From: Bacteroidia bacterium
GTDB lineage: Bacteria > Bacteroidota > Bacteroidia > Bacteroidales > JAPLDU01
NCBI GenBank assembly: GCA_026391255.1
Contig: JAPLDU010000057.1
Span: forward strand, 6,973 to 70,972
Length of the DNA: 64,000 bases
Direction: 5' to 3'
The position numbers and the translations under genes were made by a program. Below are positions 3,383 to 55,100 of the stretch, in pieces (positions within the stretch are counted from its first letter, which is position 1; each line of letters opens with the position of its first letter). The notes beneath the pieces were generated by a model. The model was given only the letters and a program-made list of their open reading frames with translations. It was not told where the DNA came from and did not search any database.

Positions 3383-3390
3383 ATTTTATT

Positions 3391-3425
3391 AGTTGTAAGT
3401 TGACAGTCGTAAGTTGTAAGTCAGG
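3391..3425. repeat. gtaagtt-word tandem array upstream of the transketolase gene
   Basis: agttgtaagttgacagtcgtaagttgtaagtcagg. Confidence 0.6.
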
Positions 3426-3430
3426 TATCA

Positions 3431-3522
3431 TGATGAGTGATGAGTGATGAGTGATGAGTCGTAGTCACGCATGGTATGCGTGTCAGGTTACAGGTCACAA
3501 GTCACAAGTCACGGGTCACAGG
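3431..3522 (+). repeat. Dispersed repeat family 2, copy 1 (gatgagt array, hairpin cacgcat-ggt-atgcgtg, gtcacaa/g array)
   Basis: It aligns with 17686-17773. It contains a 7-bp stem hairpin at 3466-3482. Confidence 0.8.
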
Positions 3523-27000: not shown

Positions 27001-27070
27001 CAGAATCTGACAATTACTCAACCTGATGCATTGGTTGCAGGTTCTACATATGGTAATATTCTTTGCAATG
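24043..27070 (+). CDS. Giant SprB-repeat cell-surface protein 'gene A', 5' segment (signal peptide plus repeat modules) up to the frameshift
   Basis: ORF-track entry 24043..27414. The N-terminus (..LLGFIVPVFLLLVSFQVSNAQ) is signal-peptide-like. It is followed by repeating C.G..DG.I...V.GG..PY.Y.W....T..I.GL..G.Y.VTVTD.NGC modules. Meaningful repeat translation stops at about 27070, and the 27071-27414 tail is out-of-frame junk. Confidence 0.85.
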
Positions 27071-27630
27071 TACGACTAATATTTCTGTTACTGCAACCGG
27101 TGGTATTTCTCCTTATAGTGGAACTGGTACTTTTAGCGTACATGCAGGACCATATTCATATAGTGTGTCGGATGCTAACGGATGTTCTTCAACTACTTCC
27201 GGTTTTATTTATGAACCTGACCAACTGTATATCGATCTCAGCGCTAATCCTTCTTCAATATTATGTAATGGCGGCACCTCAACTATTACTGTTGGCGCCC
27301 ATGGCGGTGTATCACCATATCAGGGAACAGGCAATTTTATCGTTACCGCAGGGGGACATTTATATACAGTTTATGATTCAAACGGTTGTCCTGCTTCCGG
27401 AACCATTCAGGTAACCGAACCAACTGTTCTGAACATCAGTGTATCTGCAAATCCAAATCCATTACTTTGTCACGGCGATTCAGCCACTGTCACTGTAACA
27501 GCAAGCTTTGGTACTCCACCTTATACCGGTACAGGAACATTCAAAAAAATTGCAGGAACATATACATACACAGTTACTGATCATAATGGTTGTAATGCAT
27601 CACAGGAGATTACAATTACGCAGCCTTCTG
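26423..27630 (+). repeat. Tandem duplication of a 606-bp unit (three ~67-aa modules) inside gene A
   Basis: Copy 1 (26423-27028) and copy 2 (27029-27630) align collinearly at roughly 90% identity by eye. Their first 38 nt (26423-26460 and 27029-27066) are identical. Copy 2 lacks 4 nt directly after that identical run. Confidence 0.85.
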
Positions 27631-36600: not shown

Positions 36601-39600
36601 GAGGTAATAATGGAGCTATTAATATTATAGCTGGAGGTGGTGTAACACCATATTTATATATTTGGAGTGACGGACCTACTTCTCAAAACAGATCAGTCCT
36701 TGTTGCAGGTACGTATAATATCACTGTTATTGATGCCGCATTATGTAGTATTACCGGTTCCTTTATCGTTACTCAGCCAGACCAGTTAATTGCCGATGAT
36801 GTCATTACAGACGTAAGTTGTTACGAGGGTACGAATGGCGCAATTAATCTGACTGTTACCGGTGGTACGACTCCATATTCATACGTTTGGAGCAATGGAG
36901 CACATACTAAAGATATCAGTAACCTGGTTGCAGGTAATTACTCTGTGGTAATCACAGATACTCATTCATGTACAATCAGTGGAGCTTATGTTGTGAATCA
37001 ACCTCCAATTTTCCTGGCAAATACTCAATTAGTATCAGGAATCAGTTGTTTCGGCTCCAGTGACGGAGTAGTAACTGTGGTTGAGACCAATGGTGTTGCT
37101 CCATTTACCTATCTTTGGAGTAATGGCGGTTCTACAGCCACAATTTCAGGACTTGCTACCGGAACTTATTCTGTTACGGTAACCGATGCCCATGGTTGTG
37201 TAGCTAATAGTGTTCTTCCTCCATTCCCATGGAATTTTACGGTTACCAGTACAAATCATACAATAGCAATTCAACCTTCAACAGTATTTGATATTGGCGG
37301 AAGTAATATCCAGATAGGTGACTATATCGGAGTTTTCTACAACTATGGCGGTACTTTACATTGTGGTGGTTATGTACAGTGGACAGCTGCCAGTGCTTCC
37401 TTTGGTACTTCCCTGGCTGCCTGGGGAGTTGACGTAAGTGGTGATGGATTCGTATCTGGTGAACCATTTAACTGGAAAATATGGCGTTCAAGCTTTGGAT
37501 ATGATGTGAATGCTACTGCTGTAGCCAATCCGTTATTTGACCCGTTCAATTTTAATAACGGCTCACTAAGTGCTCTTCAATCACTCACTGTCAGCCCGTC
37601 GGATATTCCGACTGATCCTAATCAGATTACATTAACACAACCTACACCTGTAACAGCAGCCATATATATGATATCCTCTCCGATAACATGTGCCGGTGGT
37701 GTTACTTCACTTATTGCTGCTCCTGCCGGTGGTACAGCTCCTTATTCATTCCTCTGGAGTAATAATGTCACTACCCAGACTTTGAATAATATACCTGTTG
37801 GTACATATTACCTTACGGTTACTGATGCTCATGGATGTACCGGAACAGCTCAGTATATTGTTACCGGACCTGATCCGTTTGCATTTAGTTACTCAGTTAA
37901 TGAACCTTCCTGCTATGGATATTCCAATGGTTCTGCAGATGTGACGGTTACTGGTGGTGCTTCACCTTATACGATTATCTGGACTACCATAGGCCAGTTC
38001 GGAACCCATGCTTCCAACCTTTCTGCAATAACATATCCGTTATTTATCATTGATAGTCATAACTGTACCGGATACTCATCAGTATCTGTTGCTCAACCTG
38101 ATGCAATCAGCCTGTTTACAACTGTAACCAATATTAATTGTAATGGATCTGCAACCGGAGCTATTACCCTGGCTGTTACAGGAGGAACATCGCCTTATAC
38201 TTACAACTGGTCTAACGGAGCTACAACTAAAGATATCAGCGGACTCGTTGCTGGCACATACACAGTAATAGTCACTGATTTAAACGGTTGTACATCATCA
38301 ACTAGTGCAACTGTCACTCAATCTGCTGCAATAGGAATAACATATGTGGTTACTGACAATAACTGCAATTATAACCAGATTGGTGCTATTAATATCACAG
38401 TTACGGGAGGTACTTCACCTTATACTTATTCCTGGTCAAACGGAGCGACAACTGAAGATATCAGTGGTCTTACTTCAGGAACTTATCATGTGGTTGTAAC
38501 AGATGTTAATGGTTGTACCGGAAGTACAAGTGCCACGGTTTCTATTATTAATCCTCTGTTTGAGACTTTAAAGATTATAACCCCGGTGAGTTGTGCTGAA
38601 GGGAATAATGGTTCTGTTCATATTGTAATCAATTTTGGTCATAATAATATTACCTGGAAAGATTTCAACAATGTTACCCTTACTACTTCATATGATGCTG
38701 CTTCATCAACCTTAAGTAATGTCATTTCCGGTATTTATTATGTAAATGTATACAACCTGATAACCGGCTGTACATTGCTTGATACTGTTGAAGTTACCGA
38801 ACCGGATCCTCTCACATATGATGCAGTTGTCACCAATGTAAGTTGTTACAAGGGTTCAAATGGCGGAGTTGACCTGACTGTTTACGGAGGAACTACCCCG
38901 TATACCTACCAGTGGTCAACCGGAGCTGTAAATCTTGGAACTACACAGGATCTGACTAATAAAAAGGCAGGTACTTACAAAGTTATTGTGACTGATGCAC
39001 ATGGTTGTACATTTGATGCAATATTTACTCTTACCCAGCCTACTAAGATTACCCCAAGCGTATTGATTTCCAACCTGAATTGCAACGGCGATCAGTCTGG
39101 CAGTATTGATCTGAGCGTCAGCGGTGGTATTACTCCTTATTTATACAACTGGAGTACCGGAGCTCATACACAGGATATTTCAGGATTATCCGGAGGAACA
39201 TATGTTGTGTCAGTAACTGATGAAAATGGTTGTGTTGTTGTAAATACATCCGTAGTGACTGAACCTGCTGTTCTTGCTGTTACAATGTCAGGAGTGAATG
39301 TCAACTGTTATGGTGGTAATGACGGCCATGCAACAGCATTAGTATCAGGCGGAACAACTCCACCTATTAATTTTGTCTGGAGCAACGGAGGAAGCAATGA
39401 TAATATTTCAGGGATATATGCAGGTACTTATTATGTAAGTGTTTATGATGCTAACGGTTGTAATGCTTTGAATTCAATTGTAATTACAGAACCTCCACAA
39501 TTGACTCTTAGTGTAATTCAGGATGTATTCAACAGCGGCTCATTCTGTGAAGCACTTGCAACTGCCGGTGGTGGTTCACCCTCTTATACTTATCAATGGT

Positions 39601-40067
39601 CGAATGCTCCATATTTTTCTACTACTCCAAGGGCTACACACTTGACTCCCGGTACGGTCTATACTGTTACAGTTACTGATACTCATGGTTGTTCCATTGT
39701 CGGAAGTGTTTTGATTCAGGCAAACCCATTGCAACCACAGATTGTTGATAATGAGTATAACCGTCAGGACAATCAGCAGCAAGTCAATCTGACACCTGTC
39801 ATCGATATTAGTAAAGAAATTACTGTGTATCCGAATCCAAACAAGGAAGGGCGCTTTACTGTTAATTTCGGTACCGTCAATGTGAATAATGCCCGGATTA
39901 AAGTATTTGACCAGTTCGGTAAGTTAATTTACACTGAGTTATTACTTAATAATGAAAACTCCCTGTTCATTCTGAACCTCAATAGTGTAGCTGCCGGAAC
40001 CTATTTCCTGCAGATTAATACTGATCATAACGGAATTCTTAACAAACAGCTCATAATCACCGAATAA
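27063..40067 (+). CDS. Giant SprB-repeat cell-surface protein 'gene A', 3' segment (4,334 codons) ending in a T9SS C-terminal sorting domain
   Basis: ORF-track entry. The same module family continues from codon 27072 (TTNISVTATGGISPYSGTG...). Restoring 4 nt gives 16,029 nt, or 5,343 codons, from 24043 to 40067. The C-terminus matches the Por_Secre_tail pattern. Confidence 0.9.
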   Translation: MQCTTNISVTATGGISPYSGTGTFSVHAGPYSYSVSDANGCSSTTSGFIYEPDQLYIDLSANPSSILCNGGTSTITVGAHGGVSPYQGTGNFIVTAGGHLYTVYDSNGCPASGTIQVTEPTVLNISVSANPNPLLCHGDSATVTVTASFGTPPYTGTGTFKKIAGTYTYTVTDHNGCNASQEITITQPSALVASSSATPILCNGGTSTVSVSASGGTTPYSGVTDYTVIAGSYTYSVTDANGCTAITSITITQPGALALAPTIHNGHCFNANDGYIHLLISGGVTPYAILWSTSETTANIDNLAAGGYQVNVTDANGCQISGSYEISQPPALTVQAHGTDLTCYHNYTGVVWAVVGGGTTPYSYHWINSATTDTVNGLTIGYYSVVVTDANNCIASSDIIINEPDLLIISLSTTNVPCNGGTGTITSFVQGGSGQYAYNWSNGATTANLTVVAGTYIVTVTSGVCIVKDSATIVQPPVLRAQIDSIHNVMCYGDHNGYIYVTVSGGVTPYAYIWTNGATIEDLTGLNGGSYQLTVTDMNNCHVTLSQTISEPLAPLTTAIFGTNLLCYNDFTGTDSLAISGGTTPYYIYWNNGATIQKLNHVASGNYSVTVTDAHGCTSIQSNTLTQPSEIIVQTAVLSNVSCYGLHDGAAYLSSITGGVTPFTIQWTGPNNFTSSDQTINNLYAGTYYVNVFDGNNCPATIHPSVTVTQPDPLVVTYYKQNVDCYGNSTGGIDITVTGGTTPYIYAWSNSATTQDITDLSAGSYTLTLTDYHGCIVDTTITIYQPDAPLMISTYSVHNVNCFGGNDGYINITVTGGTTLYSYQWSNGESTQTTTNLAAGVYSVTVTDAHGCKVYMTFDGFDEVTQPDAPLALDYEVTDVSCNGFSDGNVSLTITGGTPPYIKDWYDHLHNVIGHNAYIDGIPAGNYSVVVTDANNCVISAQMTVNQPVLLTLSDSTSHYHQFQVSCYGSSDGWITVIPAGGTSPYTYLWDIGSTVAHITGLAAGSYHVTVTDAHGCISNITVVLNGPTPVQIPEPVLVNISCHGGNNGSINISPLGGTGVFTYYWTGPNNFTAYSQNINNLYVGTYYITVTDQNGCNADANYSLSEPEALQLSSVLSNYNGFNVNCYANNDGYINTTISGGTSGYTYHWSNGATTGNIMNLYAGNYSLTVTDAHGCIITGAWTLTKPDLLIAQANITSNYHDQNISCNGANDGAACVVGQGGLTPYTYLWSNGATTSCISGLQPISYNVTITDFNGCVSNSNVGGNLPWTYNVTENSAVILLQTNTVLLIGSPAQPIAVGDYIGVFYTNGGNLVCGGYMLWNGSNNSITAWGDDPITVGVKEGFAPGETYTWKIWRPYFGEFNATAAYIPIIPPNPPFSATSHYSNDGISGLLSLISTETLNITHTVIQLHQPAALSLSFNTTNVLCSGGYSGSINLTVTGGTMPYTYLWSPGGATTQNINALQAGMYYVTVMDVNNCSVTGSVQITSPEPLSYEIITNDVSCYGGSDGRVQIIPSGGVSPYTFNWGGYNPVALAAGTYNVTITDHNNCQQVATFDIYQPSVPMTLQYQANNVTCYGYSNGSISLSVEGGTITPCGHYSFSWSGPNYYFNESQNINNLIAGIYTVTVTDCNGCIKIQSVTVGQPDAITIPGLISNYSGYGVSCNGSADGSINITVMGGTTPYIYMWDNLATTEDMSGLTSGVYSVIVHDVNNCMGSASFSLTEPAHITLSAVATSSFVVNGNTYNTTCNGNNGTISLSVSGGSGIYFYHWSYGQTTQNLNGVPAGYYTVTVTDSNGCQAVSNTVNLTAPGPLDVTLSSDNFNGYQIQCNGMTANLYLNWSGGASPYNIYFNNGVFAMNVTGNTYSHSGFAPGTYWAAIYDHNGCGRLSNQFTVTQPAPIQFPPNAVTSVSCHGDGDGSINLTNMLGGVPPFTYQWDYNANWSTAAQITGLPGGSSYYVVVWDANGCSEGTTFTIPEPAPLVYLSNTTGNVSCYEGSNGHITPSVSGGTLPYSYTAMNQSNVLFNQIIALPAGTYSVTVTDAHGCTAVMNGIVITQPVMLMASSSSTSILCHGGNSTVTVSATGGTLPYTGTGTYTVVAGTYSYTVSDALGCNSVTTITVTEPTVLTASSVATPILCNGGNATVTVTASGGTGLISGTGTFNRTAGTWSFTVTDANGCTATTSVTIAQPTPVVVELSATQIACYGGNSTVTVSATGGTGTYTGTGTFTRTFGTWSFTVTDANGCSGSSSITISQPTQLTASASTTIVSCNGGSDGTITLSVSGGITPYSFNWADGPTTQNRSDLTAGTYYVVVYDGNGCFVDVNATITENTLLHAIANPGVILCQGGSTNVVITATGGTVPYSGTGTFTQSVGSHTYTVTDINQCTANILVTLTEPALLQAIATPGFIPCHGGSTSVVITSTGGIGIVTGTGTFTQSVGSHTYTVTDANGCTASTIVTLTEPATLAYTLTINSPLCHGSSDGSIDLNVTGGTTPYTFIWNTGATDQNLTNIGVGSYSVTIYDMHSCSVSGSFVVTQPNALGIQYSITSSTCGLSDGEILITGYSGGTAPYLVTWAHTVSHNPIQLYLAPGNYYATITDANNCELTQVFTVVNFNHLSFVTAPIHNVSCFEGNDGSITLSVSGGFLPLTYLWSNGETTQNAVNLTAGFYTVTVIDANGCTGTTSATVIQAPSLLHSSISSSAVSCPGGSNGALDLTVLGGLTPYTYHWNTGATTEDLSNLPAGNYSVTVTDYYGCQNIPTATVEQPPVIQATFVKSNYNGYNISCFGSATGSIDMTVIGGTTPYTYLWSTGATTQNLANTSNGNASNVTYTVTITDHHGCTQTASTIMTQPGTPNLQFTHPPITTCYGDPIGHITLTVTFTGLTPPPPYTYLWSNGATTQSLTNIPGGIYFVTFTDANGCQTMTQTTLIQPTQVIATATTTTNFNGYNVSCFGSSNGAAIVNATGGNGPYTFKWSDPSGTTNQTISGITAGTFNVTVTDSHTCTATSSVILTQPPAITLSSQITIVNCNGNNTGAIDVTPGGGVLPYLFQWSNSSTTQDISNLVAGFYSITLTDANTCTASASYLVTQSSAINITNPVITKVNCYGSATGMISITVFGGSSPYDFNWSNGSTVQNPSGLLAGPYNLTITDAHGCTKTASYTVTTNPQLTLSGPINNVSCFGGNNGAINIIAGGGVTPYLYIWSDGPTSQNRSVLVAGTYNITVIDAALCSITGSFIVTQPDQLIADDVITDVSCYEGTNGAINLTVTGGTTPYSYVWSNGAHTKDISNLVAGNYSVVITDTHSCTISGAYVVNQPPIFLANTQLVSGISCFGSSDGVVTVVETNGVAPFTYLWSNGGSTATISGLATGTYSVTVTDAHGCVANSVLPPFPWNFTVTSTNHTIAIQPSTVFDIGGSNIQIGDYIGVFYNYGGTLHCGGYVQWTAASASFGTSLAAWGVDVSGDGFVSGEPFNWKIWRSSFGYDVNATAVANPLFDPFNFNNGSLSALQSLTVSPSDIPTDPNQITLTQPTPVTAAIYMISSPITCAGGVTSLIAAPAGGTAPYSFLWSNNVTTQTLNNIPVGTYYLTVTDAHGCTGTAQYIVTGPDPFAFSYSVNEPSCYGYSNGSADVTVTGGASPYTIIWTTIGQFGTHASNLSAITYPLFIIDSHNCTGYSSVSVAQPDAISLFTTVTNINCNGSATGAITLAVTGGTSPYTYNWSNGATTKDISGLVAGTYTVIVTDLNGCTSSTSATVTQSAAIGITYVVTDNNCNYNQIGAINITVTGGTSPYTYSWSNGATTEDISGLTSGTYHVVVTDVNGCTGSTSATVSIINPLFETLKIITPVSCAEGNNGSVHIVINFGHNNITWKDFNNVTLTTSYDAASSTLSNVISGIYYVNVYNLITGCTLLDTVEVTEPDPLTYDAVVTNVSCYKGSNGGVDLTVYGGTTPYTYQWSTGAVNLGTTQDLTNKKAGTYKVIVTDAHGCTFDAIFTLTQPTKITPSVLISNLNCNGDQSGSIDLSVSGGITPYLYNWSTGAHTQDISGLSGGTYVVSVTDENGCVVVNTSVVTEPAVLAVTMSGVNVNCYGGNDGHATALVSGGTTPPINFVWSNGGSNDNISGIYAGTYYVSVYDANGCNALNSIVITEPPQLTLSVIQDVFNSGSFCEALATAGGGSPSYTYQWSNAPYFSTTPRATHLTPGTVYTVTVTDTHGCSIVGSVLIQANPLQPQIVDNEYNRQDNQQQVNLTPVIDISKEITVYPNPNKEGRFTVNFGTVNVNNARIKVFDQFGKLIYTELLLNNENSLFILNLNSVAAGTYFLQINTDHNGILNKQLIITE
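30861..31260 (+). other. Recurrent ~125-aa non-SprB insert domain ('GDY-GVFY/CGG/AWG/WKIW' domain), copy 1 (gene A)
   Basis: LPWTYNVTENSAVILLQTNTVLLIGSPAQPIAVGDYIGVFYTNGGNLVCGGYMLWNGSNNSITAWGDDPITVGVKEGFAPGETYTWKIWRPYFGEFNATAAY...NDGISGLLSLIS. Confidence 0.8.
37215..37595 (+). other. Recurrent insert domain, copy 2 (gene A)
   Basis: FPWNFTVTSTNHTIAIQPSTVFDIGGSNIQIGDYIGVFYNYGGTLHCGGYVQWTAASASFGTSLAAWGVDVSGDGFVSGEPFNWKIWRSSFGYDVNATAV...NNGSLSALQSLTV. Confidence 0.8.
39819..40064 (+). other. T9SS C-terminal sorting domain (Por_Secre_tail / type A-like CTD) of gene A
   Basis: ITVYPNPNKEGRFTVNF....ARIKVFDQFGKLIYTE......FILNLNSVAAGTYFLQINTDHN..NKQLIITE shows the typical VYPNP start, the G.Y.. hydrophobic pattern and the terminal beta-strand. 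Confidence 0.8.
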
Positions 40068-40101: not shown

Positions 40102-40129
40102 GATCGGGTGGCCGAAAGGCCATCCGATC
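40102..40129 (+). terminator. Hairpin with a GAAA tetraloop between gene A and gene B (candidate terminator or attenuator)
   Basis: gatcgggtggcc-gaaa-ggccatccgatc forms a 12-bp stem with one mismatch. It lies 35 nt after the gene A stop, followed by AT-rich sequence but no clean T-run. Confidence 0.5.
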
Positions 40130-40153: not shown

Positions 40154-43100
40154 ATGAAAAAATTATATATTTTATTACCAGTTTTCACATTTGTAGCTTT
40201 ATTTTCTTTAGCTCAGACAATTCCATTCAGTGAAAATTTTGAAGGTTCCACTTCATTGCCCAGTGGATGGACAGTTGAAAAAGCCCCGGGTTCGACCGGC
40301 TGGCTTGTTGGTAATAATTTAGGTTCCGGAGGTTTTACCATACCCTCGCATACCAATTATGCTGCGTCAAATGATGACTTGTGCAATTGTGATATGAGTA
40401 TTGATTACCTTATCACTCCGTCACTTGACTTTAACGTGGGTAGTGGGGTACTCCTTGAGTTTGATGCATTTCTGCCCAGTTATTATTATCCCACTGATTC
40501 AAGGGGATATGTCGAGGTCAGATCCGGTGGCGGACCATGGCAGGCTGTTTATACAGTACCTGTTAACCCTGGCTGGCAGCACCTGGTAGTGGATTTGTCT
40601 GCCTTCGAAGGACAAACTGTACAGGTAGGATTTCATCATAACGATGGAGGTTACCATTCATCCGGTTTCGCAATTGATAATGTTTATATTTACCCCGTGT
40701 TCCAGTATGACGTTGGTGTCGTTTCCTGGGATTCACCAGTTACGGGTTGTTTAAGCAATAATGAATCAGTTACTATTACTGTTAAGAATTTTGGAACCTT
40801 GGCTTTTTCAGGATTTACCGCATATTATTCCATAAATGGTGTGAACAGTACACCTGTAAATGTGACTCAGACCATTCTTCCGGGAGCAACGTATTCTTAT
40901 ACTTTTAGCGCCACAGCTAACCTTTCTGTTGGAAATAACCTGTGTAATGCTACTGTAACAACTTCTGGAGATGGAAATTCAACCAATAACTCTTTAAGCA
41001 GTAATGTTACTGTAAAAAGATATAATGAAATTACCATTCCGTTTACTGAAAACTTCAATACCAATTCCAGTAATTATCTTGAAGTAACATCAAATTCAAA
41101 TGCATATTCTGTGATAAGCGGAGGATACGTTTCAATGACAGGTACAGGAAGTGGTGCTTCCTGGATCGGTGGTAGTGGATTTCCTCCTACAACTGCTTCC
41201 AATGCCTGGAATGATAATATATCCTACCAATCACAAATTGATATTAAATGTGATGGTGGAAATGTTCCTGTAAATACTTCAAAACTTGAACTTTTACTTG
41301 ACTTAAGGCAGGAAATCGTTAATTATTTGAAATATAGCTGGTTCAGTGTTTGGGTGAACGGTATACAAATTGCCGACACTCAGGGTAACCTGAATTTTAA
41401 TCCTTCCACACCTAATTCTGACCCATGGACAACACATACTTTCGATTTATCCGCTTATCAGAACCAGGCATTTACCATTGTTCTGAAAGCATCATGCAAA
41501 AAATCAACGGATGCCGTTTTTATTGACAATATAATTATCAGGCAAAGAAATGTTGCCGATGCCGGTATATACCAACTTCTTTCACCGATCAGTGATTGCG
41601 GCCTGGCAAATCACTCTGATATTATTGTGAAAGTGAAGAATTTTGGACTTGAATCTATTTCCAATATACCTGTATATTATAAAATTGACGGTGGTCCGGC
41701 ATTATTGGCCGGAAATGTTCCCGGTCCTATTTTACCCGGAATGATATCTGCTGCTTATACATTTTCAAATAAAAATACGCCCGGGTTACAAAACGTAGGA
41801 ACTCATAGTTTCGTGATTTATACAGCTCTTCCCGGGGATATATATCATAATGAAAATGATACACTGTCTTCACAAATCATTCATCTGCCTTTGATCAGCG
41901 ATTTTCCATATACCGAGAATTTTGAAGGCACTCAGTATTGGTCGGCAGGAGGAGTCAATTCTTCCTGGCAGCTTGGGATTATGTCTGGTAAAACTGTCAT
42001 GACACTAAATCCCACAGGTTCTAAATCATGGGTTACCAATCTCAGCGGTAATTATAATAATAATGAAGCTTCTTATGTAGAAAGCCCGTGTTTTGATTTT
42101 AGCACTTTAATGCATCCTGTGTTTGAAATGAAACTTTGGTATAATACAGATGCAAATGCCGACGGGGCACAGTTACAGGCAACCTATGATGATGGCGCAA
42201 ACTGGAATATCATTGGTACATTGGCGTCACCGCCAAATTTAAATAACTGGTACAATAATATTGTTTCTGCCCTGGGTGGCCTTGCCGGATGGACTGATAA
42301 CTCAGGTGGCTGGGTTACTGCAAGTATGCAGTTGCCTAATATTTATTCAGGAAAATCACAGGTTAGATTCAGAATATATTTTGCTTCTGATGCTGATAAT
42401 GGTTATCCTGTAGAATCAAATTATGACGGGATTGCATTTGATGATATTAATATTCATGACCTGCAGGCAAATACCGATATCAGGCTGATGAACTGGGCTG
42501 CTCCTTTATCAGGCATTAACCTGACATCAATTGAAACAGTCAGCTTGCATGTTAAGAACCTGGGATTAGGAAACATTACTCATTTCAATGCTTCGTATTC
42601 AATTAACGGCGGAGCTACTTTTACATCCCAGAGTTTCACATATACAATTACTCCCGGCAGTGAAGCTACTGTTAATTTCAGCACACCTGCTAATTTCTCA
42701 ACACCAGGTACCTACAATTGTGTTGCTTTTGTCAGTATGACCGGTGATGAAAATCACCTGAACGATACTATTCATACGACAATTCAAAATACATTGGTAA
42801 TTAATCAATTCCCTTACGCCCAGTATTTCCAGTCAAACAACGGTTACTGGTACAGCGGAGGTACTAACTCCTCATGGGAGTGGGGGGTACCCGCAGGAAT
42901 AACCATTCCGTTTGACTCTACCAGTACAAATAAAGCTTGGGTGACCGATCTTGACGGAGATTACAATAACAATGAGTTTTCGTGGGTGCAAAGTCCGGTA
43001 TTTGATTTCAGTTCATTAATTCAACCTGCAATTTCAATGCGGATTGCTTACGATGCTGAAGGGTATACAAATGACGGTTCAAATCTTCAGTACTCGCTTG

Positions 43101-46100
43101 ACGGTGGAAGCACCTGGACCACGGTTGGCACCGTGGCTGCATCTCCGAATACTGATAACTGGTATGTTAATTTTATCACCAGTCTCGGAGGCGAGCCCGG
43201 TTGGACTGATTATTCAGGAGGTTGGATCAATTCTTATCATACCCTCAGTGCGCTTGGTGGTCAGCCAAATGTGATTTTCCGGGTTTTATTTGGTTCAGAT
43301 GAATCAAATACATTTGAAGGTATGGGCTTTGATGATGTAAGAATTTATGAAAATGCCCCTCATGACCTGCATATGATGGCCTGGACTGCACCTACAGTTG
43401 GTTGCGGACTTGGAAATGAACACATTACTGTTCAGGTAAAGAACGAGGGTTATTTTATTGAGAATAATTTCCAGATTCAATATTCTATTAACGGTGGCGC
43501 TACATTTGTTACCGAAGTAGTTAGTACACCTGTTGCTCCCGGAGCAACTATTAATTATACCTTCAGTACTTTGGCAAACTTCAGCGCACCAGGTACTTAT
43601 AATAGTATTGCCCAGGTTCTTCTGGCTGGGGATGTTACTCCTGCAAACAATAGCATTAACTTCACAGTTAATTCTTCCCCTCTGATCACAATGTTCCCAT
43701 ATATTCAGGGCTTCGAAAGCGGTAGTGACAACTGGGTTGCTGGTGGAACCAGCAGCTCGTGGCAGCTTGGTCATCCTGCAGGTACCATTATTAATAGTGC
43801 TGCAACAGGAGTGGACGCATGGGTTACAAACCTCACCGGCAATTATAATACATCTGAAAATTCCTACGTTGAAAGTCCATGCTTTGATTTCAGCGTAATG
43901 TCTAACCCGACGTTCCAGTTCAAGTACATCAAGAATTGTGAATCCTATGGCAATTTTTATTTTGATGGTGCCAGACTGGAATATTCAACAGATGGAGGTA
44001 ATACATGGAATGTTGTTGGTGCTTATAATGATACAACAAATTGGTACAATGCACCCCAGATTTACGCCTTTGAACTCCAGACCGGATGGTCCGGAACAAA
44101 TCCAAACTGGTTAACAGCAGGTCATAATTTACCGATGCTCGCTCATATGTCAAATATTAAATTCCGCGTTTCATTTGCTTCTGACGATTATAATGACCTG
44201 GAAGGCTTCGGTTTCGACGATGTGAAAATCTATAATGATGTACCGGCCGATATCGGAGTATCCCAGATTACCAGCCCTGCAACCGGTTGCGCCAATACTT
44301 CCACAAGTATCGTGCAGGTTGTAATTAAAAACTATAACGTTACTACATTTGCCGCAGGAAATTCATTCAACGTGGCTTATCAGTTATTTGGATATGCTCC
44401 TGTGATTGAGACAGTGACATTAGCACAGGATCTGTTGCCAAATAATACCATGAATTATTCATTTGCAACCGGCCTTAGTTTACCTGTTAATGGTGGCACC
44501 TATTCATTGACTTCATATACAATTCTTCCTGAAGATGCTAACAATTTCAACGATACCACGGTTTCTTCTGTATTAGTGTACCCAGATCCAGTTATTAATG
44601 AAACGGTAACCAATGTTTCATGTAATAATTTCAGTGATGGAATGATATCAGTTGCCATATATTCAGGCGTTACTTATCATTGGTCAAATGGCCAGACCAA
44701 CTCATCTATTTCAGGCCTGATTGCTGGTGATTACTCTCTTACTGTTACCAATAGTTACGGTTGCCAGACTGTAAAGACAATATCAGTTACCCAACCCCAA
44801 CAACTTATAGCATATTCAACTGCAACTGAGATACTTTGTAATGGAGAAACAACCAACATAACTGTTACTGCCCAGGGTGGTACTTTACCTTATTTCGGAA
44901 CAGGTAATTTCGTGAGACCTGCCGGTACATATCAATTTATTGTTACCGATGCTCATGGATGTACAGCCAGTACAACTATATCAATTACTGCACCTGATGC
45001 ATTATCAGCTTCATCTTCAGTAACAACGGCAATTAATTGTTATGGTCAGACAGGTCAGATAACCGTAAGCGCCCAGGGCGGAACACCACCTTATAGTGGT
45101 GACGGTATTAAATCCGAACATGCAGGCACATATACCTATACAGTGACTGATTCAAAAGGTTGTTCAGCCACTACTATGATTACTATTTCAGAACCTCCTT
45201 TATTAATTGTAAACGCTACTGCTTCTTCTGTACTTTGTAATGGGGGCATAGCAACAGTAACTGTTTCAGCCAGCGGTGGAACACCTCCTTATTCAGGAAG
45301 CGGTACTTTCTATGCTGGTAGTGGAACATATTCTTATACTATGACAGATGCTGCAGGTTGCAGTGCTTCAACCTTGATAACAATTACTGATCCTGTTGCA
45401 TTATCTGCTACATTCTCAAAGTCTGAGTATGATGGTTACAACATTAGTTGTTATAATCTGACAAATGGATATGCAGTTGTTCATGTTTCGGGGGGCACTA
45501 CTCCATATAGTTATCATTGGAACAATGGTGTTACTGTCGATTCTATTGGTAATGTTGGTGCAGGTACTTATCATGTAACCATTACTGATGCTAACGGGTG
45601 CACACTTGGAGGTACTATGAATCCCGAGACCGTTGTGTGGAACTATATCAATACCGGAGATACTCATGAAATTCTGATATCTACGACCTGCACAATAAAT
45701 GTTGATGGAAATATTATTACTTCCGGGGATTATCTGATAGGTGTATTTTACGATTCATTGGGAGTCATGACATGCGGTGGTTATATTGACTGGAATGGTG
45801 CTCCGACAGCATTCCCTGCATGGGGTGCTGAATCTGGTATTATTGACGGTTTTGCTAATAATGAAGCATTTACTTTTAAATTTTTACGTCTTGCTGATAA
45901 TCAGTTAATTGATGTTGATAATGTTCAGTATGATCTTACATTCCAGAACCAGGGATTTTATCAGTCAAATGGCCAAAGTTCATTATTAAGTCTGACAGGT
46001 CATTCCGTCCTGCCGGTGACTACTCCGGATCTTGTCACTACATTAATCGAACCCTCGGCTATTACTATTACTTTTACTCCTTCAAATTATGGTGGATTTA

Positions 46101-49100
46101 ATGTCAGCGCTTTTGGCGCTAACGATGGATTCCTTGTTGCTGTTCCAAACAATGGCATTCCACCTTATAGTTATTTCTGGAATGGTCCAAATGGGTTTAC
46201 AGCTACCACAGCGAATATCAGCGGTCTGTATGCCGGAACCTATTTTGTTACCGTGACTGATGCTTTTGGTTGTACAGGAGTTGCTTCATTTATGATGATA
46301 CAAATATCAAATATGAACATCTCGGCACAATTCCAGAATGCTTCCTGTAATGGCTATTCAGACGGATGGATCGATATTACTGTCACAGGGGGAACAGATC
46401 CTCTGACTTATTACTGGACAAAAAATGGTTCATATTTTGCAAATACTGAAGACCTGACAGGAATTTCAGCTGGTTCTTACATGGTGGTTGTTACTGATCA
46501 ATATTTTTCAACCATTACTTATTCTGTTGTACTTACAGAATCCATGTCATTACCATTGGTTGAGGATTTTGAAGGAGGGGTTTTACCGGCTGGATGGACC
46601 AGATCAAACCAGGAACATTCACACGGATGGGAATTTGGTGATAGTAATTCACTTAGTAGTTTCTTCTTTGACCCACCGGCACATACACTTTTTGCAGCTT
46701 CAAATGATGATTTGTGGGGCTGCGACGATGGTTTTGGCAATGATACATGTAATGATGCATCTGCTGACCTTTTAATTACTCCGATGCTTGATCTTACAAC
46801 TATAAATTATTCTCACGTTACACTGACATTTGATGCATATTATCCAGATAATAGTATTCCGGGTTCAAATGCTACTGTTGAAGCTACAATAGATGGAGGT
46901 TTGTCATGGTATGTGCTTTCCACATTGTCAAATGATCCAAATGGTTGGCAAAATGGTTTAACAGTTTCACTGGATAATTATATAGGATTCTGTAATGTTC
47001 AGATAGGCTTCCGTTATAATGATGGAGGTTTTTGGGCATTCGGATTTGCTATTGATAATGTAAATATTCTTGGAGTGGCAATTCCTCCTAATGACCTAGC
47101 TGTTACTGCCTGGGATTCACCTGCTGAAGATATTTGTAATGCCGGTAATAATGTACCTGTTACCATTACAATTACAAATGATGGTTCTGTTTCAGTCAGC
47201 GGATTCAGCGCTTCTTATTCCATCGATGGTGGATTGACCTATGTTACCGAGATAGTTCCAAATGTAATTCCTCCGTTAGGGTCAATAAATTATACATTCA
47301 TTCAGACGGCCAATTTCTCAGTTATTGGAACTTATCATTGCATTGCCTCAGTGACTATTGCCGGTGATGCTAATTTAGCCAATAATGTAATATCCGGAAT
47401 TACTGTCAATACCCATTCGAATATTTCTTCATTCCCATATCTTGAAAATTTTGAGTCCGGCACCGCAGCTGATTTTAAACTGGAAGCCTCAAGTGATGCT
47501 TCCATCTCAATCGGAAGTGATGGGTCAGATTTGTCATTGATCATGGCAGGTCAGAATCCTTCAGACGGATGGTTCGGTGGCTTAAATGCCACTGCCAATG
47601 ATGCATGGAATCTGAGCATTGTTCATCATGCAGATGCTCAGACATTTTGCCCAATTAATGCAAGTTCAATGTCTTCGCTTATATTATTACTCGATCTGAA
47701 GCAGGTATTTGAAACATCACCCACCAACAGTTGGTTCAGGGTGTTGGTTAACGGTAATCCTGTGGCTGATGTGAATGGACATACTGATTTCAACCCGACA
47801 ACAATGAGCGATCCGTTTGTGACTCTGAAATATGATCTGGATGCTTTTGCAGGAAGCAGTTTCATGCTTGAACTACAGGCATGTGACCGTGATTACCTCG
47901 ACAAAGTATTTGTTGATAACGTAATTTTAAGAGCAAAGAATAAAGATCTGGCAATCACAGCAATTAATTTACCTGTTGAAAAATGCCAGATGACAAATAG
48001 CGAAGCAGTTGAAATTACTGTTAATAACCCAGGTGAATTGGCTGTTTCATTCTTTGATGTTTTCTTCCAGGTTGATGGTGGTACAATTGTGACTGAGTCT
48101 GTAAACCATCTTATTAATCCCGGTTCATCGTATGTTTATTCTTTTACAGGAACTGCAGATCTTTCTCTTTTAGGAAATCATTCTCTTTTGGCAGGGGTAA
48201 ATCTTGCAGGAGATATGAATACTACAAATGATATGATGGCAAAGAGTTTTGAAACAAAACCTTATATTTCTTCATTCCCTTATTTATCTACTTCTTCTGA
48301 ATTGCAGAATTTCTGGACACCCGGTGGTACAAACAGTTCCTGGATATTTACATCAGGTACCTATTGGAAGACTGGTGTGACAACTTATAATAATAATGAG
48401 AACTCATATGTTGAAAGTCCCTGTTTTGACTTCTCATCATTGATTAACCCGGTATTTGAATTTAATATCAATTACCAGACTGAATTTGATCAGGATGGCG
48501 CTTCGCTGCAGTATTCAACGGATGGTATTAATTGGTATACACTTGGAAATACAGGAGATCCGAATAACTGGTACACATATTCCAATAAATGGACCGGATC
48601 AGGTCCCGGATCATTTGTGATTGCAAAACATTTGCTGAATGGTTTGGCAGGCCAATCCAACGTGAGATTCAGAATTAAATTCGTATCTGATGCAAATGGA
48701 GTTTATTATGGATTCTCTTTCGATAATGTAAAGATTTATGAAATGTTCGATTTGGGTATTACTGCTTTGACGCCAGCATCAGGATGCCCTGGAACTTATA
48801 TATATCCGACGGTTACCATAAAGAATTTCAGCATGGTTAATATACCTGCCGGTACAGTGATTCCTGTTAATTATCAATTTAACGGTGGATCCACAATTAC
48901 TGAAAATGTTACTCTTGCTGCTGATTTACTGGCTAATGGTACTACCTCCTATTCTTTTTCCAGTGGTTTTGCGTTACCTATGTCAGCTACTTATAACATT
49001 AACGCCAGTACAGGTTATCTTAATGATTTAAATTCAACAAATGATTATTATTACGGATCAGTTGTTTCTCTGCCTCTTCCAATAGCTGAAGCTGGTAATG

Positions 49101-52100
49101 ATCAGCATATTTGTTTCGGGAATTCTGCTTTCCTGACGGCAACCGGAGGTGGTTCCTATGCATGGAATACCGGTGATTTTACTCAGAGTATTACTGTATA
49201 TCCTCTGACAACAACAGTATATACTGTTACTGTTACAAACACAAACCAGTGCGTTAGTACCGACCAGGTTACAGTATTTGTGAATAATCTTCCAATTGCC
49301 GATGCCGGTCCAGATCAGGTGGTTTGTTATGGTACACCGGCCACTCTGACCGCCACAGGTGGAGTTTATTATTTGTGGAGCACTTTTGAAACTACAGCTT
49401 CAATAAATGTCACCCCAACCGCATCTGAAATATATTACGTTACCGTAACAGATGGAAATGGTTGTTCTTCTTCTGATTATGTAAATGTTACAGTTTTAGA
49501 TCTTCCGGTGGTAAATGCCGGGAATAATATAACTGTATGTAATGGACAAAGTGTTACACTGACTGCCACAGGTGGCGATTCTTATTCATGGGATAATAAT
49601 GTCGAACAGGGAGTTCCATTTGTACCCCAGTATACTACACTATATACTGTTACAGTTACTGACAATAATGACTGTTCTAATACCGGTAATGTTACTGTTT
49701 TCGTAGATCCTCAGATCAGTTTATCCTTTGTTAGTGTTATGCCTTCCTGTGCTGGATATTCGAACGGTTCGATTGACCTTACAATAATTGGTGGTTCTAC
49801 TCCATATCAGATTCTTTGGTCAACAGGTAGTACGAATGAAGATATCAGTGGTCTGGATGCTTCTCAATATTCTGTGGTCGTGACAGATGCTTTTAACTGT
49901 TCATCTTCGTTGAATGTAGATATTTTGCAACCCAATCAATTGACATTATCAATATTTGATATTGGTAATTATTCCGGTTATAGTGTGAGTTGCCATGGTG
50001 CTGCTGATGGTAGCGCTTCTGCTGTCGTAAATGATGGAACTGCCCCGTATTCATATTTGTGGAGCAACGGAAGTACAGTTAACCCTGCAACTGGTTTGAC
50101 TGCCGGAGATTATTCTGTCGTTGTGACTGATGCGAAAGGATGTCAGATATCAGGTAATATTACCTTAACAGAACCTGACGTTTTGCATATTGGTAGTAGT
50201 ACTACACCTGTTACTTGTGTTGGAGCCAGTGATGGAAGTATCAATATTATTGTTGATGGTGGAACTACTCCTTATATATATTATTGGAATAACGGAGTTA
50301 CAACCCAAAATGTTAGCAATGTGCCGGCAGGTAATTATTCTGTAACTGTAACTGATTATTATGGCTGTCAGAATTTTGCGACAGTCACTGTCGAACATCC
50401 CGTTGGTATTCAGGCATCGTTTATAAAATCTGATTTCAACGGTTATAATATTAGTTGTTTTGGTTCTGCTACAGGAACTATCGATTTGACAGTTAATGGT
50501 GTTACATCTCCTTATACTTATCTATGGTCAACTGGTGAAACCACTCAAAACCTTGCCAATATTTCATTGGGTAATTCTTCAAGTGTAACTTATACTGTTA
50601 CTATTACCGATAATAATAATTGCACCCAGACGGCCTCTACCATTATGACTCAGCCAGGTACTCCTATCTTTCAGTTTTCTCATCCACCTATCACCACTTG
50701 CTTTGGTGATTCGATTGGACATATTACACTGACTATTAGTTTTACAGGACTTACTCCTCCTTCACCTTATACCTATCTGTGGTCAAACGGTGCAACAACA
50801 CAAAATTTGACGAATATTCCAGGTGGAGCTTATTCTGTTACTTTTACCGATGCAAACGGATGTCATACTGATGCACAAACTACACTTTCCCAACCTGCTC
50901 AGTTAATTGCTTCTGCAACTGCAATTACCAACTTTAACGGTTATAATGTTAGTTGCTTCGGTTCATCTAATGGTGTTGCCGTAGTTAATGTAACTGGTGG
51001 CACTCCTTTATATACATATAAGTGGAGTGATGTATCCGGTACTACAAATGATACACTTTCAGGAATTTCTGCAAGCATGTTTAGGGTTACTGTGACCGAC
51101 TCTCACTTTTGTACAGCAACTTCTTCAGTGACACTTACACAACCTTCGGCTATCACTTTAATGTCGCAAATTACAAATGTTATTTGCAATGGTGGCAGTA
51201 CTGGTGCTATTGACCTTACACCAGACGGTGGTGTTGTACCTTATGGTTATCATTGGTCTAACAGTTCCACAACACAGGATATTTCAAACCTGATTGCCGG
51301 AATTTATTTGGTTACAGTTACTGACCATAACGCATGTACTGCTACTGCTCCTTATACTGTAACACAGAACACAGCTATTTCTCTTACTGCTGTGATCACA
51401 AAGGTTAGTTGCTACGGTGGAGTAAATGGTATGATCAATATCACTGTATCAGGAGGTAATACTCCTTACAACTTTAACTGGTCAAATGGCAGTACACTTG
51501 AAGATATTTCAGGATTAACCGCAAGTATTACTCCTTACACAGTTACAGTAACAGATGCACTTGGATGTAATAAAACTGGTTCATATACTGTTAGCCAGAA
51601 TCCACAGCTTACTATATCAGAGACAATCACCAATGTTGCATGTAATGGAGGTAATAATGGAGCTATTCAAATTAATGTTGAAGGTGGTGTTACACCATAT
51701 GCATTTAATTGGAACGATGGACCTACTTCTCAAAACAGATATAATCTCGAAATGGGTACCTATTATGTCACAGTTATTGATGCTGCATTATGTAATATTA
51801 CCGGATCATATACAATTACTCAGCCAGACCAGTTAATAGTCAATTATTTTATTACAAACTTAAACTGTTATCAGGGTTCAAATGGCGCTATTAATCTGAC
51901 TGTTAGTGGTGGTACAACTCCTTATTCATACGACTGGAGCAATAGTGCTACTACAGAAAATATTGACAATCTGTTAGCAGGTAATTATTCAGTGGTTATT
52001 ATGGATGCCCATTCCTGTGCCTTCAGTGGAGCTTATGTTGTGACTGAACCTCCTATTTTCCAGGTTAATACTCAGGAAGTGTCTGGAATCAGTTGTTACG

Positions 52101-55100
52101 GCTTCAATGACGGAGTTGTAACTGCCGTAAAGACCAACGGAATAAGCCCATTTACATATCAATGGAGTAATGGTGGTTCAACAGATACTATTTCAGGACT
52201 GGCTCCGGGAACTTATTCTGTTACTGTAATTGACGCCAATGGTTGTGTTGCCAACAGTGCAACTCTGCCATTGCCGTGGAATTATTTGGTTACCGGTACA
52301 AATCATACTATAGCTATTCAGCCTTCAACAGTATTTGATATTGGCGGAAGTAATATCCAGATAGGTGACTATATCGGAGTATTCTACAACTATGGTGGAA
52401 CTTTATATTGTGGTGGTTACGTACAGTGGACTGCTGCCAATGCTTCCTTTGGTACTTCCCTGGCTGCCTGGGGAGCTGACGTAGGTGGTGATGGATTTGT
52501 TTCAGGTGAAGCATTTAACTGGAAAATATGGCGTTCAGCATTGGGATATGGAGTAAATGCTACTGCTGTAGCCGATCCGTCATTTGATCCTTTTTATTTT
52601 AATAACGGCTCACTAAGTGTTCTTCAATCACTTTCTGTTGCCCCGTCTGATTTACCGACCGATCCTTCGCAGATTACATTAACAGAACCCACATCTGTAA
52701 TAGGAACTATATATATGTCAACTCCTCCGATAGCATGTGCCGGTGGTGTTACCTCTCTAATAGGTATTCCTGACGGTGGCACTGCTCCTTATTCATTCCT
52801 CTGGAGTAATAATGTCACTACCCAGGATTTAAATAATGTGCCTGCTGGAACATATGACCTTACGGTTACTGATGCTCACGGATGTACCGGTACGGCTCAG
52901 TATATTATTGAAGAACCGGATCCGCTTGCATTTGATTTCTCTGTAATTAAACCTAGCTGTTATGGCTATTCAAATGGTTCTGCCGACGTGACAATTACTG
53001 GTGGTATTTCACCATATGTGATTATTTGGACTTCCATCGGTCAGTTTGGAACTCATGCTTCTGACCTGTTTGCAGGAACCTACCCTGTTTTAGTCATCGA
53101 TGGTAACAACTGTTTAGCAAATGCATCAGTTAATGTTGGTCAACCGGATGCTCTGTTTGCATCTGCAGTGGAAACCAATAATGCCGGTTATTCCGGTACT
53201 GAAGGAGCAATTGACTTAACGGTAACCGGTGGTACTATTCCTTATTCATATGTATGGTCGGATGGAGAAACCACTGAAGATATTTCAGGCTTAACAGTTG
53301 GAACTTATACTGTTACTGTTACTGATGCCAATTATTGCAGTACTACTGCAAGCGCTACTATTGAACTTATACCGTCATTAAGTATTTCCTGGACACTTGT
53401 CAATCCTCAGTGTTATGGATACGATGGTTCGATTGACCTTCAGGTTCAGGGCGGTATACAACCATATTCCTATCTGTGGTCAGATAATGAAACAGTTAGC
53501 TTAATTTACGTACTCGCTGGTGTATATGACGTTACCGTAACTGATTATAATGGATTATCAGGAACAGCTGAGATTATTGTGAATCAGCCTCCTGCCATGA
53601 CTATTTTGGCTGTTGTAACTGATCCGACCTGTCAGGGTGGATCAAACGGAGCTATTGACATAACGGTTACAAATGGTGTCTCTCCACTCATTTATTGGTG
53701 GTCAAACGGTAGCTTTGATGAAGATTTAAGTGGATTAACAGCAGGTTCATATGCTGTAAACGTGTGGGATATCAACGGATGTCATGTTACTGCTGACTAT
53801 ACACTTACCGATCCTGTTGAATTATTTGCAATAATTAGTATTACAAGCAATTATAATGGTCAGGCTATCAGTTGCAACGGAGCTGCTGATGGAATGCTTG
53901 ACGTCATTGCATCAGGTGGTACTACTCCTTATTCATATATTTGGAGTACCGGAGCTACTGATAATGAAATCAGTGGTCTTATTGCAGGCACCTATTTCGT
54001 TACTGTTCATGATGCAAATAACTGTTCGACAAGTGGAATTTCAGTTATTCCAAACGTCGGATCAAATGTTGACTGGAGCTATACTATTACTTCAATTCCA
54101 ACTCATCTGATTTATGTACCTGCAGATGCTGTTAATGTTGATGGAATGCCATTATCCTGGGGCGATTATGTGGGTGTCTTTTATAATGTTAACGGAGGAT
54201 CATTGGCCTGCGGAGGATTTATGTTATATACCGGGTCAGATAATTACATTTCTGCATACGGAGCTGATCCGGGAATGAATAATGGTTTTGCCATTGGAGA
54301 AGAATTCAAATGGAAAATATATAAATCGGCTGAAAATTTGACACTTGATGCTGACCCGATTTATGATATTGTTGACTTTACTCAATCAGCCTGGTTTACT
54401 CCTGATGGAATTTCAGGCTTGACATCCCTCACCGGATCGCTTAACGGTCAGACTATAGCTCAGGGTATTGTTTTAGGACAACCTGATGCAATTTCTCTTA
54501 CTCTCGATATTTCAAACTACAATGGTTATGCAATATCCTGTTACCAGGCCAACGATGGTGCTGTAGTTGCCAATGTTACAGGAGGGACTTCTCCTTACAG
54601 TTATTACTGGTCAAATGGTAGTATATTGCAGGGAGCTGATCAGTTAGCACCCGGAGATTATAGTGTGACGGTTACTGATGCCAATGGCTGTTATGCTGTT
54701 GTTAACTTTACCATCACAGGACCTGATCAGTTAGTTGCCAATTATTCGGCTACTGAGATATTATGCTATGGAGGTACTTCAGATGTAACCATCTGGGCAA
54801 CCGGCGGAACTGCACCTTATAGTGGAGAAACCACGGTCTCATTACCCGCAGGAACATATACTTATACAGTCGGTGATGCCAATGGATGCACTGCAGATGT
54901 AACATTTACAATCACAGAGCCTTCACCGTTAGGAGGATTTTATTCTTATACTGATATAAGTTGTTATGGAGCAGCAGATGGAACTATTGACTTTTTTGAT
55001 ATTTATGGAGGTATTCCCCCTTATGAATACAGTGTAGACGGAGGATTAACCTGGCAGTTGAGCGAATATTTTACAGCACTGGGACCTGACACATTCCAAT

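Follow-up and report, generated by a model that had tools for sequence, protein, structure and literature searches.

Does a giant surface protein really carry a second copy of its own N-terminal head far inside the chain, how would this copy have arisen, and what could such a protein do? These questions are raised by gene B in a 64,000-nucleotide (nt) stretch of DNA from a Bacteroidia bacterium (assembly GCA_026391255.1, contig JAPLDU010000057.1, positions 6,973 to 70,972), which is called the window below. Gene B is a single forward-strand frame that begins with the ATG at 40154 and has 0 stops in the 7,949 codons up to the end of the window (64000); it leaves the window at its 3' side, so that its product is at least 7,949 amino acids (aa) long and its own C-terminus lies outside the window. 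It is a SprB-repeat protein, with multiple PF13573 repeats above the cut-off.

Comparison of gene B with related proteins revealed that (i) the two head blocks are real, (ii) the two-block architecture is conserved and previously undescribed, in a family that counts seven or more members and belongs to the familiar class of giant type IX secretion system (T9SS) surface proteins, and (iii) the gene B product is fairly probably a statically anchored T9SS surface fibre with two multivalent arrays in its outer part that would probably bind ligands.

Two copies of the head in gene B

A reading of the window from its sequence alone had placed one head copy at the N-terminus of gene B and another about two thousand residues into the protein. 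Both were found, block I at aa 22-1478 and block II at aa 2131-2976, and their module orders were as that reading had given them: in block I, a choice-of-anchor J module (CoA-J), a CARDB module, a module called X, a second CARDB module and then three pairs of a MAM-like and a CARDB module; in block II, the same plan with one MAM-like unit, i.e., with two MAM-like/CARDB pairs fewer. The spacer of SprB modules and one insert domain (INS) between the blocks measures 652 aa (1,956 nt), and the proposed motifs are present (FPYTENFE, WVTNLSGNYNNNEASYVESPCFDFS, FDDINI/FDDVRI/FDDVKI and FIDNIIIR), module X of block I ending in AVFIDNIIIRQR.

The recommended alignment of the two blocks by BLASTP was colinear: over 886 columns, aa 2132-2964 and aa 22-871 are 35.8% identical (E 1.5e-118). 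By this alignment the similarity is far above chance, and block II can be regarded as a true paralogous copy of block I. Module-by-module BLASTP and local hidden Markov models (HMMs) gave an inventory of 8 CARDB-like, 4 MAM-like, 2 CoA-J and 2 X modules for gene B; the same two methods detected no third block copy in the remainder of gene B, in the upstream SprB-type gene (gene A) or in open reading frame (ORF) C. The features of gene B are the following.

40154..40216, plus strand: start codon and signal peptide, MKKLYILLPVFTFVALFSLA followed by Q, with the cut expected before this Q (read by eye from the sequence)
40217..40699, plus strand: block I CoA-J jelly-roll, aa 22-182 (NCBIfam NF038128, 53.1 bits, full length)
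40700..41023, plus strand: block I CARDB 1, aa 183-290 (Pfam CARDB, 25.3 bits against a cut-off of 22.7)
41024..41548, plus strand: block I module X, aa 291-465, predicted jelly-roll with no curated model (AlphaFold, Foldseek, hhalign)
41549..41893, plus strand: block I CARDB 2, aa 466-580 (BLASTP and local HMM to the other CARDB modules; no Pfam match of its own)
41894..44587, plus strand: block I, three MAM-like/CARDB pairs, aa 581-880, 881-1175 and 1176-1478 (profile and model)
44588..46543, plus strand: inter-block stalk, SprB aa 1479-1824, INS aa 1825-1960, SprB aa 1961-2130 (Pfam SprB, 86.6 and 44 bits)
46544..49081, plus strand: block II, CoA-J aa 2131-2306, CARDB, X aa 2423-2595, CARDB, MAM-like aa 2701-2865, CARDB to aa 2976 (colinear with block I)
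49082..49723, plus strand: three Ig_7/PKD-like repeats, aa 2977-3190 (Pfam Ig_7, PF19081, 37.7 bits against a cut-off of 27.3)
49724..64000, plus strand, running off the window: SprB-repeat stalk with three further INS domains, aa 4039-4169, 4638-4765 and 6234-6367 (Pfam SprB; local HMM for INS)

The Ala-Gln site at the end of the signal peptide fits the Q-rule for signal peptide cleavage in Bacteroidetes (PMC5837995), by which the cut is expected before Gln21. The first domain begins 2 residues past this expected site, and the orthologues of gene B likewise have an Ala-Gln site immediately before their first domain.

Domain families and folds of the head modules

The CoA-J modules were tested with the NCBIfam model choice_anch_J (NF038128, cut-off 30 bits). 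Those of block I and block II scored 53.1 and 33.8 bits, respectively, and both span positions 2-162 of the 162-position model; module X and the MAM-like modules gave no match to it. With the Pfam CARDB model (PF07705, gathering cut-off 22.7 bits), the whole protein scored 59.6 bits. Scored singly, four of the eight CARDB modules passed (25.3, 24.0, 24.9 and 27.5 bits), one reached 20.0 bits and three had no match; the modules that passed include CARDB 3 and 4 of block I and CARDB 2 of block II (27.5 bits), and CARDB 5 of block I has no Pfam match of its own. BLASTP and a local HMM linked the three modules without a match to the remaining ones.

The MAM-like modules of block I are mutually 41-44% identical. 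They were compared with the MAM-type families MAM (PF00629), InhA-like_MAM (PF20773) and Reelin_subrepeat-B (PF21471), whose gathering cut-offs are 26.4, 26.9 and 27 bits, respectively. Summed over the 3,100-aa N-terminal part, InhA-like_MAM reached 56.5 bits and Reelin_subrepeat-B 54.4 bits. Thus, domain searches bore out two of the family labels of the sequence-only reading, CoA-J and CARDB, above cut-off, whereas for the MAM label the single modules were sub-threshold. Among solved structures, a profile of 26 MAM-like+CARDB units matched Reelin (E 7e-12), Bacillus immune inhibitor A (InhA; 4yu5, E 1.4e-8) in its MAM-like region, and the nuclear magnetic resonance structure of a CARDB domain (2l0d, E 0.011). 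These profile matches support remote homology of the modules to the MAM superfamily, with no assignment to one Pfam family. Every MAM-like module contains an Asp-box-like S.DGG.TW hairpin, which accounts for the Reelin and BNR matches. InhA and Reelin subrepeat B, which have this hairpin in common with the MAM-like modules, are their closest solved relatives by sequence profile; the context is different, InhA being a secreted metalloprotease and Reelin an animal extracellular matrix protein.

Module X had no Pfam or NCBIfam match above cut-off, and its profile matched no sequence in the PDB. Its AlphaFold model has a predicted local distance difference test score (pLDDT) of 92.9, and a Foldseek search with this model returned carbohydrate-binding modules (CBM22/35/4/61), the MAM region of meprin and Eph ligand-binding domains (E ~1e-4, TM-scores 0.45-0.55). 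The module X family (window positions 41024-41548 and 47420-47938) has 743 cluster representatives at E <= 1e-3 and 152 at E <= 1e-30 among 1.84 billion proteins, and in T9SS proteins module X is frequently located between CARDB modules.

Comparison of the module profiles by hhalign matched CoA-J with the MAM-like modules over the full length (99.7% probability, E 6e-27), CoA-J with X at 97.2% and X with the MAM-like modules at 96.4%; CARDB, used as the negative control, gave at most 1% probability. All three module types share the N-terminal motif (L/F)P(F/Y)xExFE and the C-terminal motif G(F)xID(N/D)(V/I)xI, of which the ExFE and ID(N/D) parts may make up a calcium site as in related jelly-rolls. 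By these profile and motif matches, CoA-J, module X and the MAM-like modules are one jelly-roll superfamily, and the head can therefore be described as a series of jelly-roll+CARDB units of about 290 aa each, five in block I and three in block II. The model of a MAM-like+CARDB di-domain (pLDDT 89.4) resembles known combinations of a jelly-roll with an immunoglobulin-like (Ig-like) module, namely the N-terminal regions of GH2 enzymes, the MAM-Ig module of RPTPmu and Reelin; the relative orientation of the two domains fits poorly.

Other suggestions of the sequence-only reading fared less well. No LamG-type or concanavalin-like family appeared in the Pfam and NCBIfam output for the region or for single modules, and the term "sensor-like" finds no counterpart, since the same output contains no signalling or transmembrane sensor family over the 7,949 aa. 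Neither an enzymatic nor a signalling domain was detected in gene B by these scans, and its neighbours, a second SprB-type gene and housekeeping genes, provide no signalling context. A search of the literature on CARDB and MAM domains in Bacteroidetes found nothing relevant, the choice-of-anchor J domain being mentioned merely in passing.

Conservation of the two-block plan

Six further proteins of uncultured Bacteroidia have the full two-block plan: L002 from a Bacteroidales metagenome-assembled genome (MAG), L034 from a JGI metagenome, and P0237, P0239, P0240 and P0246, which were found by a module X profile search. Among the pairs compared, two family members are at most 58.5% identical (L002 and P0246). 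Small deviations from the plan were observed: the final CARDB module of block I is missing in P0246 and L002, and block II of P0237 has no MAM-like module. The spacer between the blocks is shortest in P0239 (about 150 aa) and longest in L034 (about 1,500 aa), whereas the blocks are constant. Between the window protein and L002, identity is 48.5% over block I and 40.8% over the part that runs from the spacer to the end of block II. For most relatives, the best match of a jelly-roll is its positional counterpart (37-61% identity), L034 being the main exception, whereas segments of the SprB stalk mostly match best at other places of the stalk (33-44% identity). Four relatives are covered up to their C-terminus and measure 5.2-6.6 thousand amino acids (kaa); the gene B product exceeds 7.9 kaa.

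These relatives bear directly on the possibility that the second head is an artefact, produced by misassembly or by a sequencing error that joined two adjacent genes. Repetitive genes misassemble easily, and the neighbouring SprB-type gene does contain a 1-nt frameshift. However, the gene B frame is open across the junction, the two blocks are only 36% identical and therefore too divergent for a collapse or expansion of repeats, and six independent assemblies (NCBI, JGI, ENA and Logan) contain the same two-block single gene. We thus dismissed this explanation, which we consider extremely improbable.

A search of the protein collection with the first 1,500 aa of gene B revealed no close match (best 38%), and the best locus for gene B in the genome-contig collection was 45% identical. 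The ValS protein of the window is 100% identical to MCX6257824.1 from an NCBI MAG of a Bacteroidia bacterium; the second-best ValS is 74% identical, and Bacteroidales and Marinifilum sequences are about 68% identical.

The sequence-only reading had called this an unusual head for a SprB-type protein. The two-block plan itself is indeed distinctive, whereas its components are not, and to this extent the claim was overstated. Alternating MAM-like/CARDB arrays are widespread in T9SS cargo of Bacteroidota, including proteins of 1.4-2.5 kaa and M4 peptidases. Proteins annotated by NCBI as "choice-of-anchor J domain-containing" or "T9SS type A sorting domain-containing" (e.g., P0001, P0003 and P0007) consist of the same module families in the same alternating unit of about 290 aa, and P0003 covers 98% of block I at 31% identity; such proteins differ from gene B in being 1.4-2.5 kaa long, with one array and with neither a second array nor a long SprB stalk. 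Moreover, a CoA-J/CARDB/X start is also found on two partial SprB-repeat proteins, P0004 and P0005 (loci L001 and L003): the beginning (signal peptide, CoA-J, CARDB, X), the subsequent SprB repeats and the headless SprB-type gene upstream are the same, whereas the head runs on as four tandem CoA-J modules without CARDB spacers, and no second block is present in the part available. This paralogous type of head (L001, L003) occurs in the same MAG as L002. In addition, the proteins of about 625 aa at L035-L037 begin, right behind their signal peptide, with a CoA-J domain whose identity to CoA-J II of gene B reaches 47%; thus, the CoA-J II subtype also occurs as an ordinary N-terminal domain.

Origin of the second block

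In a tree of the CoA-J/CARDB/X triplets, block I of the window protein groups with block I of L002 and block II with block II, each with 100% bootstrap support. Hence the window lineage and that of L002, at least, separated after the duplication. When L034 and P0004/P0005 were added, the deeper nodes, on which the rooting of block I against block II depends, had 30-44% bootstrap support. The closing CARDB modules of the two blocks are reciprocal best matches, which suggests that the block was copied as a whole and that the number of MAM-like/CARDB pairs changed later. Taken as phylogenetic evidence, these results support a duplication of the head, with block II derived from an ancient copy of block I and kept since. 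All 15-16 modules have been kept since the duplication.

Two origins had been offered by the sequence-only reading, a fusion of two ancestral genes and a duplication of the whole head-plus-stalk unit. The latter was not borne out by comparison of the stalks. The stalk after block I (SprB-INS-SprB) best matches aa 5867-6554 and aa 3673-4316, far downstream; its match to the segment right after block II, which opens with the three Ig_7/PKD-like repeats, was the weakest of the twelve best matches listed. Since the stalk after block I resembles distant SprB-INS-SprB cassettes more than the segment after block II, duplication of a head-plus-stalk unit was rejected. As to fusion versus internal duplication, block II starts exactly where it aligns with the mature N-terminus of block I (aa 2132 and aa 22, respectively), and adjacent SprB-type genes are present at every locus, so that two neighbouring genes may plausibly have fused. 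At the block junction of gene B, the sequence contains no visible remnant of a signal peptide or sorting domain.

The position of the junction is also what would be expected of a polyprotein that is cleaved before block II, the two head-bearing pieces then being released or rearranged as in processed T9SS adhesin/protease complexes. The exact alignment of the block II start with the mature N-terminus agrees with this scenario, as does the variable length of the spacer before block II next to the constancy of the blocks. On the other hand, the sequences read have no conserved cleavage motif at the junction, the gene B protein has no protease domain, and a freed N-terminal piece would be anchorless. 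Processing of this kind is therefore very unlikely in our view.

Stalk repeats, sorting domains and comparison with SprB and RemA

SprB repeats (PF13573) score 71.5 bits in the N-terminal part of gene B and 903 bits, over 34 stretches, in the remainder. Block II is followed by the Ig_7/PKD-like repeats (pattern ..A.AG.DQ.IC.G....L.A.GG..Y.W...) and then by about 4,750 aa of SprB repeats. The Ig_7/PKD-like repeats are at the same position in the orthologues; thus, the conserved region reaches past the end of block II, where the sequence-only reading had closed it. The INS domain is an insert of about 130 aa with the pattern W.Y..T..H.I.I...GDYIGVFY..G...C.GY..W that matched no Pfam or NCBIfam model. 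Four copies are present in gene B (45626-46033, 52268-52660, 54065-54448 and 58853-59254) and two in gene A (aa ~1270-1405 and ~3390-3475), and INS was found in all relatives as well.

Sorting domains of type A correspond to the model TIGR04183 (cut-off 23 bits) and those of type B to TIGR04131. All four relatives that reach their C-terminus have a type A domain there (43-47 bits), as does gene A (50.7 bits). No PorP/SprF-like gene was found in the 10 kb downstream at the related loci L042 and L044, where the genes are metG-like, CN_hydrolase and similar.

The size and the repeats of gene B suggest comparison with SprB of Flavobacterium johnsoniae, a giant repetitive gliding adhesin that has a type B domain and needs SprF (PMC12635249). 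The type B domain of SprB targets cargo to the gliding track, whereas type A domains lead to static anchoring or release, and SprB given a type A domain is exposed at the surface yet does not move (PMC12618676). Anionic lipopolysaccharide is linked with type A cargo (PMC9143113). Gene B and SprB are alike in their very large size, the stalk of SprB repeats and the expected T9SS-dependent surface display; they differ in that SprB has the type B domain, the SprF carrier and movement along the gliding track, whereas the four relatives that reach their C-terminus have type A domains and no SprF-like neighbour lies in the 10 kb downstream at L042 and L044. The bipartite jelly-roll/CARDB region is the distinctive feature of the gene B family in this comparison of size, stalk, sorting signal and gene neighbourhood. 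The nearest functional analogue, likened by description only, is RemA, a type A-domain adhesin of F. johnsoniae with a lectin domain that still takes part in gliding (PMC12618676). RemA is a surface adhesin of the T9SS whose sorting domain is of type A and which carries a sugar-binding-type module, features that are predicted for the gene B product as well; its lectin domain is a module of another kind than the jelly-rolls of gene B, and repeated arrays are a feature of gene B.

Gene B might nevertheless encode a mobile gliding adhesin of the SprB type, a fibre coupled to the gliding track whose two heads grip the substratum. The dozens of SprB repeats in its stalk, the precedent of SprB and the contribution of RemA to gliding favour this explanation. 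The type A domains of the four relatives, the lack of a PorP/SprF-like gene after the family gene at L042 and L044 and the immobility of SprB with a type A domain argue against it, and we consider it quite unlikely. In the four relatives that reach their C-terminus no type B domain was found, nor was a PorP/SprF gene in the 10 kb downstream at L042 and L044, and gene B was accordingly rejected as an orthologue of SprB; the type A tails and the lack of a PorP/SprF-like gene downstream indicate that the family is SprB-like in its repeats alone. On present analysis the family most likely forms a static fibre.

Upstream partner gene and genomic neighbourhood

The headed giant gene is regularly paired with a headless SprB-repeat gene that ends about 70-140 nt upstream of it, in the window as well as at nine related loci (L001-L003, L034 and L040-L044). 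Wherever the C-terminus of the upstream product was scored (gene A and L042-L044), it has a type A T9SS tail. The stretch of the window concerned is 21066-64000, and the upstream member of the pair is the following feature.

24043..40067, plus strand: upstream partner gene, headless SprB-repeat protein with a T9SS type A tail, two ORFs (SprB repeats in both ORFs; TIGR04183, 50.7 bits)

The two ORFs (24043-27414 and 27063-40067) are both SprB-rich and overlap in different frames. At about 27066-27072 the SprB repeat ILCN/GTTNISVTATGG runs on in the +1 frame, consistent with one missing G: near this junction AATGTACG is present, AATGGTACG would yield ILCNGTTNISVTATGG, and the first frame turns to junk there. 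Judging by the continuity of the repeat, the two ORFs are one gene of about 5.3 kaa with a 1-nt deletion, which would be either a sequencing error or the mark of a pseudogene.

An 86-nt spacer separates the stop codon of gene A from the start of gene B. It contains a 12-bp GC-rich hairpin, GATCGGGTGGCC GAAA GGCCATCCGATC, at 40102-40129, followed by A/T-rich sequence, and this hairpin may act in termination or attenuation between the two genes of the pair. The housekeeping genes further upstream include valS, dxr, rseP, arcC and the genes of ornithine carbamoyltransferase and Xaa-Pro aminopeptidase, the last of which is common to the window, L042 and L043.

Proposed function

For gene B we infer fibre orientation, static anchoring, a binding function and the class of ligand as follows. 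The product would be exported by Sec with its signal peptide cut before Gln21, and a C-terminal type A sorting domain, as in the relatives, would take it across the outer membrane. Its C-terminus would then keep it static on the cell surface, unless it is released, and its N-terminus would point outward; with the C-terminus at the surface, the N-terminal residues, about 3,000 in number, would be distal. This outer part would present eight jelly-rolls of one superfamily, CBM-like in fold and spaced apart by the CARDB Ig-like domain that comes after each of them, in two arrays, five jelly-rolls at the tip and three further down, with a short SprB-repeat spacer between them. The remaining residues (about 5,000), SprB repeats and INS domains, would form the stalk. 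Both arrays would be the ligand-binding part of an adhesin, the ligand probably being a glycan or surface polymer that is bound multivalently. No other part of the gene B protein is as well conserved as the jelly-rolls, whose fold is that of carbohydrate-binding and MAM adhesion modules.

Several observations weigh against this proposal. The sorting domain of gene B itself is unseen, since its C-terminus lies outside the window, and RemA takes part in gliding despite its type A domain, so that such a domain does not fully preclude a role in motility. Every single MAM-like module is below the curated cut-offs of the MAM-type Pfam families, the best scores being 26.4 bits (InhA-like_MAM) and 24.1 bits (Reelin_subrepeat-B), and the structural likeness of module X to carbohydrate-binding modules is generic, with TM-scores of about 0.45-0.55. 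Ligand binding is predicted for this family from fold and position, and such beta-sandwich arrays could be purely structural.

In the latter case the jelly-roll/CARDB arrays would be rigid segments of a rod, stabilised perhaps by calcium, or a protective coat, and would bind no specific ligand. Many T9SS cargo proteins, M4 and M36 peptidases among them, have CARDB and MAM-like modules as accessory domains or spacers, and no ligand-binding residues were identified in the jelly-rolls of gene B, both of which agree with such a role. It is less easily reconciled with the jelly-rolls being the best conserved modules, mostly with positional orthology, unlike the stalk repeats; with the stalk repeat type that the protein already has for this purpose; and with the location of the arrays at the distal end, the first domain lying within a few residues of the mature N-terminus. 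A purely structural role is thus unlikely, though we would give it some weight, and an adhesive fibre is the explanation we prefer.

In a bolder version of the adhesive fibre, the internal array, which lies about 150 to 1,500 aa below the tip depending on the family member, would be no passive relic but a second binding site with a function of its own, and might dock the headless upstream fibre or cross-link fibres. We regard this as speculative and improbable; if true, the two conserved genes together would give rise to a surface mesh of two components or to an adhesin for two ligands.

Implications for giant T9SS surface proteins

Giant T9SS surface proteins are abundant in environmental Bacteroidota. 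To our knowledge, almost none of them has been characterised beyond SprB and RemA. The family described here has three fixed features: (i) an N-terminal region with two arrays, (ii) a type A rather than a type B sorting signal, and (iii) a constant headless partner gene upstream. Three module types of unlike appearance can now be treated, on the profile evidence, as one jelly-roll superfamily, and two domains of these proteins, module X and INS, have no curated model. The finding opens no new mechanism; its practical worth lies in better annotation of such proteins and in a concrete set of modules for binding studies.

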